Position numbers and translations under genes: made by a program. A stretch of DNA of 63,867 nucleotides, filler included, from Octopus bimaculoides (lineage: Eukaryota): assembly GCF_001194135.2 (NCBI RefSeq). It is 7 parts of 7 records of this genome, joined end to end, with 100 filler letters (N's around TTAATTAATTAA, not from the genome) between each part and the next. Parts side by side here need not be neighbours in the genome. Positions count along the whole stretch, not along the records: positions 1 to 20,320 come from NC_068990.1; positions 20,421 to 33,637 come from NC_068983.1; positions 33,738 to 51,615 come from NC_068993.1; positions 51,716 to 54,565 come from NW_026429415.1; 3 more parts are not named here. The stretch is one strand, 5' to 3'. Numbering within the stretch: position 1 is the first letter of the stretch; the number at the start of each line of letters is the position of its first letter. Below the pieces are notes generated by a model. That model had not been told where the DNA came from. It ran no database searches and was given only the letters and a program-made list of their open reading frames with translations. Below, in pieces: positions 15,171 to 51,804 of this stretch.

Positions 15171-15437
15171 ACATTATTTACATTATTTATATTTGACAGA
15201 TATCATCTTGTTTGTTATTAAGTCAACGTTTCGGCTTATATACCCTCCATCCTTCATCAGGCGTCTTGGGGAAATTTCGAACCTGGGTTCTCATTCCTAA
15301 GGTTTTTCGATGTAGTTGTTGTTGTTATTATTATTATTATTATTGTTGTTGTTGTTGCTGTTAATATTCAGGTCACTGCCTGGAATCGAACATGGAATCT
15401 TGGGGTTAGTAGCCCGCGGTCTTAACCACTACGCCAT
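15171..15437 (-). mobile_element. tRNA-headed, hammerhead-bearing SINE-like element (family H1), inverted arm
   Basis: Minus strand: A-box TGGCGTAGTGG, B-box GTTCGATTC, (AAT/AAC)n spacer, body acatcgaaaa..ccttaggaatgagaacccaggttcgaaatttccccaag, then gacgc-CTGATGA-a-ggatg..aagcc-GAAA-cg-TT. Confidence 0.8.
15221..15267 (-). ncRNA. Minimal type-I hammerhead ribozyme motif (degenerate copy, family H1)
   Basis: CUGAUGA core, GAAA, palindromic ACGU helix III; helices I and II are partly eroded in this copy. Confidence 0.6.
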
Positions 15438-15481
15438 GCTTTTAACCACTAATTGTGCTCTTAACCACTACGCCATATGAC

Positions 15482-15750
15482 CTTAATAATAATACTAATA
15501 CTAATAATAATAATAATAATAATAACATCGAAAAATACCTTAGGAATAAGAACCCAGGTTCGAAATTTCACCAAGACACCTGATGAAGGCTGTAGGGTAT
15601 ATCAGATNNNNNNNNNNTCACCAAGACACCTGATGAAGGCTGTAGGGTATATCAGATGAAACGTTCTAATAACAACAAACAAGATGAGGACAAATATCCA
15701 TCAAATGTAAATAATGTACATAATTCTTGACCTCTAAAATATAGAACTGT
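15482..15750 (+). mobile_element. Family H1 element, direct arm (headless, complete 3' end ..aaatatagaactgt)
   Basis: Reverse complement of 15171-15330; contains gacac-CTGATGA-a-ggctg..GAAA-cg-TT. The 15571-15607 segment is duplicated across a 10-N gap. Confidence 0.8.
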
Positions 15751-15984
15751 ATTTCATTTCATGTTGCTCCAGTCCACTCAGCTATAAATGGGTCACCCTG
15801 TGATGGAATAGCTTTCCAATCAGAGATGTAGCATCATTCGAAAGCCAGCGAGGTAGCATCACTCGGAAGCCAGTAAAGCAGCATTATTCGAAAGCTAAAA
15901 AAACACGGACCGCACTGTGACCAGAGTTGTATAATAGCATCCGTTAGTCTAGTTGATACAGTGATACCGTGTTATTCATCCAAA

Positions 15985-46799: not shown

Positions 46800-49346
46800 C
46801 TTTATTTTGTATATTTTTCATTTTGTTCTGGCTGCCTATGCCCTGGTGTTTGCTGAATTTATTTCTGGAGAACATTAATTTTCTTTGTGGTTGGGTCGTT
46901 GATGACCTCTTTCTAGCGTATTGGAGGTCCACCTAGTGGTCATCCCTTCTTATACGCATGTAATATNNNNNNNNNNNNNNNNNNNNNNNNNNNNNNNNNN
47001 NNNNNNNNNNNNNNNNNNNNNNNNNNNNNNNNNNNNNNNNNNNNNNNNNNNNNNATATATATATATATATATATATATATATATATGTGTGTGTGTGTGT
47101 GTGTGTGTGTGTGTGTGTTTGTATGTATGTATGCATGTAATGTATGTATGTATGTATACATGTATGTATGTGTGTATGCATGTATGTATGTGTGTATGCA
47201 TGTGTGTATGTATGTATCTAGTTATCTATCTGTCTATATACATGCGTATGTGTATATCTGTATGTTTCTGCGTGTGTGGGGTGTGTGTGTGCATGTGTGA
47301 GTACATATATATGCACACAACTATGTAGACATATATGCATACATATCTACATGAGAGAGAGAGAGAAAGGGAGAGGGAGAATGAGAGAGAGAGAGAGAGA
47401 GAGAGAGAGAGAGAGAAGGAGAAAGAGAGAGAGTAAAATAGTGAGGGATAGAAGAAAGAAAAGGATGTAGAGTTGAGGGTAAACACCAGGAAAATAAAGT
47501 CTGCTCCTGTAATAAAGTATCCAGTTTCGAACCCTATGTATGACATGACAAAATGATTGGATTACGAGAAAGCAACACAGCAAATAGATATATGCCTCAT
47601 TTTATTTCCTCAAAAATAACAAATGCCATACTTTAAAAGCGATTGCTATACAACTAATTGTTGCACTTATAGATATACATATGTGTTTGTGTAGGTGTGT
47701 GTGTATGCCTGCATGTGTGTACGTGCGTATTTGAAGTCTGATTTGATAGTAATATGCGACCTGTGAGGTTTTTTGACACCTAGTGTGATGCAGTTTAAAT
47801 AAACAACAACAATAAATCCTCTAACTTCCTGTGCAAATATATAAAAGTCGGTGGAGAAGATCTCATTTGCTATTTTAGCAGTAAATCCTCTGAAATCACA
47901 TTTGTTTTTTAGATATATTTTCATTAAGGCTTTAATTTCACTTTAGCTTTTATATTCACATACATACCCACGTATGTATACGTACGTACATACATACATG
48001 CATACATACATACATACATACATACATACATACATGCATACATGCATACATGCATGCATGCATGCATGCATGCATGCATACATACATACATACATATATA
48101 TATATACAAGAATAAGGGCAGGGAATCGTCAATTAGTAATAGAATTAATAATTAACAATTTTGCCAAGTAGTTCAGTATGAAAAAACCTTTATCGGTAAA
48201 ACCATTTATCATCATAAATATACAGGGATTAGCATTGAGTTGCTTCTCCAACATACTGAAAATTTAGAAATAGCAGTCAAAGAACTACTGNNNNNNNNNN
48301 NNNNNNNNNNNNNNNNNNNNNNNNNNNNNNNNNNNNNNNNNNNNNNNNNNNNNNNNNNNNNNNNNNNNNNNNNNNNNNNNNNNNNNNNNNNNNNNNNNNN
48401 NNNNNNNNNNNNNNNNNNNNNNNNNNNNNNNNNNNNNNNNNNNNNNNNNNNNNNNNNNNNNNNNNNNNNNNNNNNNNNNNNNNNNNNNNNNNNNNNNNNN
48501 NNNNNNNNNNNNNNNNNNNNNNNNNNNNNNNNNNNNNNNNNNNNNNNNNNNNNNNNNNNNNNNNNNNNNNNNNNNNNNNNNNNNNNNNNNNNNNNNNNNN
48601 NNNNNNNNNNNNNNNNNNNNNNNNNNNNNNNNNNNNNNNNNNNNNNNNNNNNNNNNNNNNNNNNNNNNNNNNNNNNNNNNNNNNNNNNNNNNNNNNNNNN
48701 NNNNNNNNNNNNNNNNNNNNNNNNNNNNNNNNNNNNNNNNNNNNNNNNNNNNNNNNNNNNNNNNNNNNNNNNNNNNNNNNNNNNNNNNNNNNNNNNNNNN
48801 NNNNNNNNNNNNNNNNNNNNNNNNNNNNNNNNNNNNNNNNNNNNNNNNNNNNNNNNNNNNNNNNNNNNNNNNNNNNNNNNNNNNNNNNNNNNNNNNNNNN
48901 NNNNNNNNNNNNNNNNNNNNNNNNNNNNNNNNNNNNNNNNNNNNNNNNNNNNNNNNNNNNNNNNNNNNNNNNNNNNNNNNNNNNNNNNNNNNNNNNNNNN
49001 NNNNNNNNNNNNNNNNNNNNNNNNNNNNNGGATAATTTTTATTTTAATCTTATCCCTGTAAACATTATTACTAAGATTAAAATGAAAAATTATAAATTTT
49101 CTCCAAAAAAGCCATCTCTACTCATTTTTTCAAATATATATATATATATATATATATATATATATATAATGTACCATGAACTTTCTGTTTTGTAAGAAGT
49201 TTTTTCCTAGTGTGTGTGAGCGCATTCTATTAATCTTTTGAAACACACGTGCTCTTGAGGAATGTATAAAGAATAATGCAATGAACCTCATTAGCCTACA
49301 GCTGTTTCCGCCATTGGATGCAGTGCACTAAGAACTGAGTGCTCGT

Positions 49347-49570
49347 GAGCTGGCAGAATCGTTAGCTCGCCGGGCGAAATGCTTAGCGGTATTTCGTCTG
49401 TCGTTACGTTCTGAGTTCAAATTCCACCGAGGTCGACTTTGCCTTTCATCCTTCCGGGGTCGATAAATTAAGTACCAATTACGCACTGGGGTCGATGTAA
49501 TCGACTTAATCCCTTTGTCTGTCCTTGTTTGTCCCTTCTATGTTTAGCCCCTTGTGGGCAATAAAGAAAT
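49347..49570 (+). mobile_element. Young SINE family A with Tx1-like tail and 19-bp TSD
   Basis: TSD taagaactgagtgct(c/t)gtg at 49329-49347 and 49570-49588; tail ccttgtttgtcccttctatgtttagccccttgtgggcaataaagaaat. Confidence 0.9.
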
Positions 49571-51804
49571 AAGAACTGAGTGCTTGTGCAGCTCCTCGGA
49601 GCTTCTGAGGAAGCTATAAGGTTATGCACAAGTACTCAGCTCTCAGTGCGCTGCATCTTATAGCAGAAACAGCTGTAACGAATGTCATGTTCCTTTGTCA
49701 TTATTTCATTTCATGTTATGGTCTGTTCTCAACTAACTGTTTATTCTGAAATGTATCTATATTGCATTCTAACGCCAGGTGAGCAGCATTGCTATGCCGA
49801 AGCGAAATATACATACATACATACATACATACACACACACACACACACACACACACACACACACACACACACACACATATATATATAATATATATACATA
49901 TATACACACACACACACATATATATATATGTATATATACATATATACACATACATACATACATACATATATATANNNNNNNNNNNNNNNNNNNNNNNNNN
50001 NNNNNNNNNNNNNNNNNNNNNNNNNNNNNNNNNNNNNNNNNNNNNNNNNNNNNNNNNNNNNNNNNNNNNNNNNNNNNNNNNNNNNNNNNNNNNNNNNNNN
50101 NNNNNNNNNNNNNNNNNNNNNNNNNNNNNNNNATGTATATGTGTATGGAAATGCAAATTGTATAGTACACAAATATACATAGAAGTACATTAATATAAAC
50201 ACATATATAAACTATGATGGAAGATACTTGCTGACATCGTTTGTTGTAGGTATAATGTATCTAAGATTATATTATTCACTATGTTCTTTATTTTAACATG
50301 CTATGCCATGATTTAAGTGAGATTTGGTTGCTATTTCTTGCAGATTAATCTCCCACACTGAAGTTCTCTCCTTGCCGTTATAAACGTTTGATTGCTTCGT
50401 TTGTTGTTAAATGTCTGTCGGTCGATTAAATCAATTTCCAGTTCTTGCTTAGTATTTTATTTTATCGATCACAATATGCGAGTTAAAGTAAAATTGATTT
50501 CGGCGAGATTTGAACCCACAACGTAGAAGAAATCAAAACAAAACCGTAAGCGGCTTGTCCAATATCTCATATCCATTTCTAATTTACGCACAAGAGTAAA
50601 ATTTTCAGGGGTGTGGGTTAGTTGGAAAAAATCAACCCAGAGTTGATTTAATCGGCCCCGGAAGAACAAATGACTAAGTTGACCTCGACAGGATTTGAAT
50701 TGTGTGTGTAAAGAACCGGAAGCAATGCCACAAAATATTTTTTGGCGCTCGAACGTTTCTGCCAATCCGCTGCAATCCGAAGACTTAATCTTATTTATAA
50801 ATGGTAATTTATATATAAGTTTGTCTGTTACCATCTTACTGTTGCAATCAGCGAACCAATTTTCACGACAGCCTGCATACATGTTAAAATAACACTCAGT
50901 TCAATAATAGGCTAACTGGATTTCAATAAAAATCTATAATCTGTCCCCTAGTGGGGTTGGTCGAACTGTACCATAAAATGAGAAGTGTGCTAAAAGTATT
51001 AGTTTGAGGGAATGTAGTAGCAGAAGTGAGGGTAATTGATATCAGGGAAGGGAAGTAGAGCGTTTTGTAAGTGACAGATATGGAACGGCAATGGGTTGTT
51101 AAAGTTAATACAGCTGTCATATACACGCGACGCTGCACACATACTTTTGTAAATACAGATACATGTATCACCGAGGAAGGGAGAGAAAGGAGGGTGTGAG
51201 GAATACGTAGCTTTAAGAAGAGTGGGGTAGGTGGCTTTTCTACTGACCATTGCAAAGAAGCACTCACACACAGACACACACACACGCACACACACACACA
51301 TACATACATACGTACATACATATATACATACATACATACATATATACATACATACATAGGCTGATTAGAAGACTACAGATTCAAGCCATCAATGGAACTG
51401 TAAAGATATGTAAAACTTTCCAAAAATTTAGCACATAAATACATATGCATGCATCTAGACATAAAAACGCATCCATAAAACAAACATACAAATCTGCGCA
51501 TACACTAACACCAAATACTGCACACACACACATATGCACAAATACCTAGATGATGTTGATAAAAGTTCCAATGAAGGAGCCTTGAATCTATGTTAGAATC
51601 CGGCTCTTTCTCTATNNNNNNNNNNNNNNNNNNNNNNNNNNNNNNNNNNNNNNNNNNNNTTAATTAATTAANNNNNNNNNNNNNNNNNNNNNNNNNNNNN
51701 NNNNNNNNNNNNNNNATATATATATATATATATATATATATATATATGTATGTATGTATGGATGGATGGATGGATGTTTGTATGTATGTATGTCTGTATG
51801 TATA

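Follow-up and report, generated by a model that had tools for sequence, protein, structure and literature searches.

Our analysis of a 63,867-nucleotide stretch of the Octopus bimaculoides genome (assembly GCF_001194135.2; seven parts joined end to end, hereafter the window) indicates, with a probability that we put at roughly three in four, that a set of hammerhead-like motifs in it represents mostly decayed copies of unrelated short non-coding retroelements. These elements carry minimal type-I hammerhead ribozymes and were likely copied in trans by reverse transcriptases (RTs) of endonuclease-bearing Penelope-like elements (PLEs). The evidence consists of the fold (in single copies of families D, E, G and C, and in the majority letters of family A), of the high abundance and the presence in RNA of families A and D, and of the anatomy of the insertions. 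An earlier note on the same DNA had proposed at least six motif families (here A, C, D, E, G, H) and two weaker ones (B, F). All eight motifs lie near the positions it gave, and they are indeed unrelated in sequence (local scores 10-19; the 24 between E and H is due to one common 12-mer). Its count is partly confirmed: five families are solid hammerheads, four of them by descriptor (C, D, E, G) and A by majority letters only, while H, which lacks helix I, is partial and the two weaker motifs fail in the core.

Two descriptors were run on the window. The strict one (paired positions 3:8, perfect helices of at least 3 bp, GAAA, palindromic helix III, UH) gave four matches, and the two with a helix III of at least 4 nt are C and D; 100 local dinucleotide shuffles gave 0.19 such matches per shuffle, and none reached two. 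The tolerant, scored descriptor gave six matches, the top four being D (score 37), E (30), G (24) and C (24) and the other two standing at chance level. At a threshold score of at least 22, four matches were observed versus 0.14 expected per shuffle, and 0 of 500 shuffles reached four, so that the comparison with shuffled sequence proposed in the earlier note came out in favor of the motifs, with a score written post hoc, when the motifs had already been seen. The numbers expected per window at each motif's own score are 0.000 (D), 0.006 (E), 0.058 (G) and 0.074 (C); because of the post hoc score, more trust can be placed in D and E than in G and C (0.06-0.07 expected each). The core N3-U-G-A-N-N8-A with paired 3:8, GAAA and UH is present in A (at family level), D (as G3:C8), E, G and H. 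Helices I and II are formed, with helix III as a short palindrome, in A (majority letters), C, D, E and G. Inspection of all 29 CUGANGA sites of the window yielded no further complete motif. Two places with CUGAAGA and then GAAA, at 1425 (-) and 59998 (-), resemble heavily decayed hammerheads and pass no descriptor. Minimum free energy (MFE) cofolds of dimers returned strand-swapped helices and were not used.

The best-scoring motif, D, has an unusual core and belongs to an element with the following parts:

33085..33135, minus strand: hammerhead D, core start 33128, core GUGAACA (G3:C8 swap), extra G, predicted cut between 33092 and 33091
32759..33136, minus strand: family D element, divided by a 218-bp foreign insert (32843-33060)
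20828..20883, plus strand: 5'-truncated 3' end of D within (TA)n, without ribozyme; 20828-20859 match

Helix I of D has 7 bp, helix II 5 bp, and the palindrome is AAUAUU; helices I and II are both present in the MFE fold. Reads and contigs were recruited from two RNA runs and two contig sets for families A and D only, and for C, E, F, G, H and B the evidence comes from the window. The RNA reads are raw runs labelled as the same species, from fragmented libraries, and 6% of each run was read. The region 32640-33178 recruited 1,471 and 1,067 RNA reads and 4,756 and 3,896 contigs, part of them from adjoining repeats, with peaks at 33058-33136 (over the ribozyme) and at 32759-32842. Joints between 32842 and 33061 occur in all four runs, and the 218 bp in between are therefore a foreign insert. 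This insert, a repeat of lower copy number in its own right, includes degenerate repeats similar to TTAGGG at 32920-32960. Loose ends lie at 33136 and 32759. The 5' boundary, immediately upstream of helix I, is sharp and common (136 and 139 contigs at 33136); a short extension shared among copies gives way there to AT-rich flanks that are unrelated. The 3' end matches the truncated copy at 20828-20883. Based on the joints and the loose ends, uninterrupted D appears to be about 200 nt long with the ribozyme at its 5' end. A short inverted arm is also present.

None of the best 40 of 175 variant positions listed, which judging by their ranking reach down to a share of about 65% in the best run, falls inside 33087-33135. 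Since these changes extend to about 65% without touching that interval, each of G3 and C8 is present in no less than about one third of the D material in every run, and probably in the majority. The G3:C8 core is no private mutation of the window copy, and a paired double change at 3:8 by decay is unlikely.

Family A combines a hammerhead tail with a tRNA-like head, which the earlier note had missed:

15159..15762, both strands: insertion 1, a diverging inverted pair with one 12-bp target site duplication (TSD; 15159-15170 / 15751-15762), located in an older repeat
15372..15437, minus strand: tRNA-like head with A-box-/B-box-like motifs, connected to the body by (AAT)n
15220..15265, minus strand: decayed hammerhead, core 15260-15254, predicted cut between 15225 and 15224
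15568..15669, plus strand: decayed hammerhead of the plus arm, cores 15580/15630, with a 40-nt doubling around a 10-N gap
17068..17946, both strands: insertion 2, an inverted pair with an 11-bp TSD (17068-17078 / 17936-17946)

Out of 12.9 M and 12.0 M RNA reads, the region 15130-15480 recruited 4,672 and 3,726, respectively; the contigs recruited number 12,403 and 11,666. Five letters of the motif differ from the majority letters (84-99% of reads or depth, computed in runs X21 and X1), and each of the five majority letters mends a mismatch. The restored fold has a 5-bp helix I, CUGAUGA, an extra A, a 5-bp helix II opening with G-C, GAAA, the palindrome ACGU and U17. Summed depth reaches 6 million compared to 17-64 for the single contigs listed; a depth sum is not a copy number, and as a rough estimate the family may have tens of thousands of copies or more. 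In insertion 2 the minus arm (core 17157; a copy absent from the earlier note) has lost 21 nt of the ribozyme and retains part of the head, the plus arm has its core at 17795 (+) and a decayed GAAA, and a piece with translation similar to the 3' part of a long interspersed element (LINE) lies between the arms. In the plus arm of insertion 1, an exact 40-mer stands on either side of the 10-N gap. Because it is 100% identical across the gap, the doubling at 15568-15657 is probably an assembly overlap and no tandem. A search of metagenome contigs for the family A pattern gave 0 matches.

The head of A is 66 nt long and lies across (AAT)n upstream of the body, with box-like motifs about 45 nt apart. 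The motifs were matched against consensus A-box and B-box patterns, and the head would act as an RNA polymerase III (Pol III) promoter. ARAGORN reports 0 tRNAs in the window and Rfam calls no tRNA at the head. In the window the head is found only beside the A body (both of two strong matches), with an identical junction in two insertions that have different TSDs. At least three contig joints among those listed link head and body, with the (AAT)n microsatellite skipped in recruitment. Depths of head and body are of the same order, similar in RNA and 3.4 M vs 6.1 M in DNA (X1). Reads also contain inverted junctions at the 5' end of the head (15437). Beyond 15437 most reads run into a short shared palindromic stretch and often on into an inverted head, suggesting that the inverted arm folds back at a constant position. 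Head depth, contig joints and inverted junctions favor A as one tRNA-headed unit. Two positions in this family, A>G at 15274 and T>C at 15186, are changed in about 20-27% of RNA reads and in at most 0.3% of DNA depth. These changes could be A-to-I editing of inverted pairs; a few highly expressed copies account for them equally well, since T>G sites behave alike.

The remaining motifs of the window are as follows:

29632..30196, both strands: family C, a 263-bp unit plus 92 nt of a tandem unit (minus) and an inverted arm (30033-30196), in (TAA)n
29812..29848, minus strand: hammerhead C, core start 29845, CAGAUGA (U4A), helix II 4 bp, palindrome AUAU
40673..40757, plus strand: hammerhead E, core start 40678, CUGAAGA, helix I 5 bp, 8-nt palindrome, solo
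46435..46945, plus strand: element G, flanked by 13-bp direct repeats (46422 / 46946), 511 bp apart
46731-46799, plus strand: hammerhead G, core start 46738, CUGAUGA, palindrome ACCGGU
49297..49677, both strands: family H inverted pair, plus-arm core 49605 (+), minus arm divided by a short interspersed element (SINE)
42903..43030, both strands: motif F, an inverted pair, 75% alike, cores 42988 (+) and 42945 (-)
25546..25600, minus strand: motif B, core start 25592, with hammerhead-like geometry

Helix I of C has 3 bp and is extendable across an internal loop. About 1.35 tandem units of C are visible up to an N gap, the sole direct tandem in the window; the inverted arm beyond that gap is 98% identical and lacks the last ~34 nt. 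The helix II region of E is long, with one mismatch. G has a 3-bp helix II with a long loop and a helix I with a closing mismatch. H shows the core, an 8-bp helix II and an 8-nt palindrome, and the SINE in its minus arm has a 15-bp TSD of its own (49329 / 49570). Both arms of F retain CCGACGA, a 4-5-bp hairpin, a helix-I-like pairing and a shared 8-mer that replaces GAAA...UH. F is no canonical hammerhead; it represents an old family of hammerheads or else a structured end of another kind. The claim that core variants here escape a CUGANGA search holds for D at family level; the U4A core of C is seen in one copy only, and F and B fail in the core.

How the motifs were inserted is visible from their surroundings. 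A one-sided tail of about 33 nt together with an inverted arm was found in all three pairs compared (both A pairs, where the last ~33 nt stand on the plus arm only, and C). Target marks include TSDs of 12 bp and 11 bp (A) and 13 bp (G), a position in (TAA)n for C and an end in (TA)n for D; E, F and H yielded no TSD. Of the direct-tandem or inverted arrangements that the earlier note described for most motifs, the inverted ones occur in A (two pairs), C, F and H and as the short arm at D, and direct tandem repetition is reduced to C. The anatomy agrees with its non-coding, PLE-style insertions, and it alone suggests the link to a Penelope protein that the note had assumed.

As a mechanism, we propose that a source copy would be transcribed from the tRNA-type Pol III head in A and by read-through or from a tandem context in the other families. 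A PLE RT/GIY-YIG protein would nick the target and start target-primed reverse transcription from the 3' end of the RNA, and an inverted arm would often be added. As helix III consists of no more than a palindrome of 4-8 nt, cleavage would depend on the pairing of two copies, so that unit RNAs could be trimmed from tandem or read-through transcripts and lone monomers would stay intact; the latter fits inserted copies that retain sequence 3' of the cut site. Inserted copies would then decay without selection, and D would use a G3:C8 pair instead of C3:G8. A further proposal, which we rate slightly below even odds, is that the Penelope machinery is parasitized by two mini-elements, a tRNA-promoter SINE with a borrowed PLE 3' end and hammerhead, and a ~200-nt element opening with an active G3:C8 hammerhead, each in tens of thousands of copies or more.

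Several results weigh against these interpretations. No family A copy of the window passes the hammerhead descriptor alone, and no hammerhead match is found among the 150 of 289 Rfam window matches listed or in three local scans. The MFE of E and of G favors another fold. Helix I of H has only about 2 bp and is unformed, leaving no full hammerhead; F has CCGACGA and two helices, yet GAAA in neither arm; and the B core, a single window copy, is without G5 and A6 and passes neither descriptor. PLE hammerheads cleave poorly, even as dimers, and their low activity is dimer-dependent (PMC4209133, in the part available). For A, RNA reads are more decayed than DNA: among the 40 of 70 variant positions listed, G12 is changed in about 26% of RNA reads vs 6% of DNA depth. 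RNA reads split about equally between both strands, and therefore no dedicated transcript is established. For A and D there is no pile-up of RNA ends, at UH sites or elsewhere, among the positions listed and no tail-to-head joint indicating a circle among the joints listed, negatives that are weak because the libraries are fragmented and 6% of each run was read. The RNA-seq check suggested in the earlier note thus gave no sign of such ends or circles for these two families in the data listed, and its check for PLE ORFs, made within the window, found no PLE protein sequence attached to any motif (Pfam; 22 open reading frames (ORFs); nothing beside E or G). Pfam gave one weak RT match below cut-off (31131-31529) and one weak unrelated match. 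An ORF upstream of E (40533-40739) resembles a GIY-YIG C-terminus by eye; this assignment is unsupported, as the ORF matches two repetitive unrelated proteins and nothing else. Three related RT fragments (41-347, 31131-32138 and 61736-61908, with a weak RVT_1 match) were noted, and these we take to be LINE-like rather than PLE by their motifs. LINE-like 3' ends at 17360-17605, 30290-30440 and 39750-40210 have similar C-terminal peptides and (TAA)n tails, and two of them adjoin A and C arms.

The motifs may alternatively be 5'-truncated 3' ends, that is pieces of the pseudo-long terminal repeats (pseudo-LTRs), of autonomous PLEs, with the A head as a separate SINE whose (AAT)n tail attracts them. 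We consider this unlikely, though it is the best of the competing explanations. Most PLEs are truncated at the 5' end, with microsatellites as the target of some clades (available text of PMC8557442), what precedes one A arm is the (TAA)n tail of a LINE-like piece instead of a head, the DNA depth of the A body exceeds that of the head, the listed head-body joints number just three with the microsatellite skipped, and E, G, H and C are known from the window only. Against it stand the sharp common 5' boundary of D with its unrelated flanks and a head that occurs in the window only beside the body and with the same junction in two independent TSD contexts; the similar RNA depth of head and body and the inverted junctions at 15437, by which the head takes part in PLE-style inversions, also speak for the trans-copied short elements that we prefer. 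The earlier note had further called the elements retrozyme-like, and non-LTR retrozymes, in which tandem hammerhead repeats yield abundant circular RNAs that serve as templates, are a rather improbable reading. The 263-bp period and extendable helix I of C come near the ~300-bp monomers described in the accessible part of PMC7229834, and a 2026 preprint (bioRxiv 10.64898/2026.07.22.740005, likewise in part) derives retrozymes from PLE pseudo-LTRs. Two consecutive complete hammerhead units are found nowhere in the window, however, the data listed for A and D hold neither end pile-ups nor circular joints, and the helices are of the minimal type, so that the term lacks support in its strict sense.

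A third, very improbable reading takes the motifs for chance matches, or for stem-loops at the ends of DNA-type mini-elements (similar to miniature inverted-repeat transposable elements or Helentrons), without ribozyme ancestry. This reading could draw on the tuning of the tolerant score after the fact, on the modest values of G and C, on the failing cores of F and B and on the missing Rfam matches. It conflicts with D and E, which lie far beyond the shuffles, with the majority letters of A, which rebuild every pair around an exact core, and with the one-sided tails and the 5' truncation at 20828-20883, which point to reverse transcription. We therefore retain decayed, hammerhead-bearing retroelements copied in trans as the best explanation.

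Published systems, compared here through the parts of each source that were available, place the motifs close to PLE hammerheads. Cervera and de la Pena (2014; PMC4209133) describe minimal hammerhead ribozymes (min-HHRs) that number thousands in a genome and fall into many families; most are solitary or form inverted pairs spaced 100-700 bp apart, and they have an extra nucleotide after A9, G10.1-C11.1, a palindromic helix III and a U3-A8 core variant. The window motifs share the type-I topology, the extra nucleotide, a short helix I, the tiny palindromic helix III, the many unrelated families per genome in mostly solo or inverted arrangement and a 3:8 covariant core. They differ in that D pairs G3:C8 where those pair U3-A8, that the helix II regions of E, G and H are long and that no ORF link exists in the window. 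Craig et al. (2021; PMC8557442) report endonuclease-bearing PLEs with partial tandems, inverted arms, a 30-40-bp one-sided tail and a microsatellite bias. The window elements are similar in the partial tandem with inverted arm, the tail at one end, the (TA)n preference and a hammerhead near the 3' end with an extra nucleotide and a near-palindromic helix III, and they carry no ORF, unlike these PLEs. Supplement S1/S2 of that paper lists Hydra-1_oBim, a PLE of O. bimaculoides with a hammerhead and (TA)n preference; this hammerhead differs by eye in sequence from all window motifs, and three window motifs searched for in the available part of the supplement are absent from it. Schistosoma Sm-alpha and Sj-alpha (PMC6765202) resemble A as short repeats with a Pol III-type promoter followed by a type-I hammerhead, but are described as tandem repeats, whereas A is scattered as inverted pairs that have TSDs, a tail on one side only and a hammerhead of the minimal type. 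Non-LTR retrozymes (PMC7229834; bioRxiv 10.64898/2026.07.22.740005) likewise consist of short non-coding repeats with a hammerhead and are believed to rely on PLEs, and the unit length of C fits; their defining features are complete, mostly canonical hammerheads in tandem units, and circular RNAs, neither of which is seen in the window data. Natural U3-A8 and U4C hammerheads are known (PMC3088659), G3-C8 appears as an engineered, partly active variant only in the portions available of PMC8495972 and PMC3884650, and cephalopods contain Penelope, SINEs and Rfam hammerheads (PMC6962438, PMC8967140, PMC10886601, bioRxiv 596502).

The window itself is rich in AT and microsatellites, with 28 N runs and SINE-like repeats by dozens. 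A 12-nt island between two 44-N runs recurs six times (20321-20420, 33638-33737, 51616-51715 and similar) and is a scaffolding artefact.

A swarm of minimal hammerheads alone is what the 2014 work leads one to expect: multiple families, the extra nucleotide after A9, the palindromic helix III and 3:8 covariation (as U3-A8) are already published (available text of PMC4209133). New here are two variants, the G3:C8 family D and the tRNA-headed family A. Neither a PLE hammerhead with a natural G3:C8 pair nor a tRNA SINE that ends in a PLE hammerhead came up in the literature searched, whose coverage is incomplete. Lunse et al. (2017) reportedly treat PLE minimal hammerheads, and G3:C8 may already be among their cases. 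If natural and much amplified, the G3:C8 core would take the known 3:8 covariation beyond U3-A8, and descriptors based on CUGANGA would then undercount ribozymes. The role of hammerheads in PLEs is still open (PMC8557442, as far as available). Abundant 200-400-nt elements like A and D would define a minimal RNA for the PLE protein and would permit a direct test of whether cleavage aids or hinders copying, and a tRNA-headed element with a PLE tail would make PLEs partners of SINEs.

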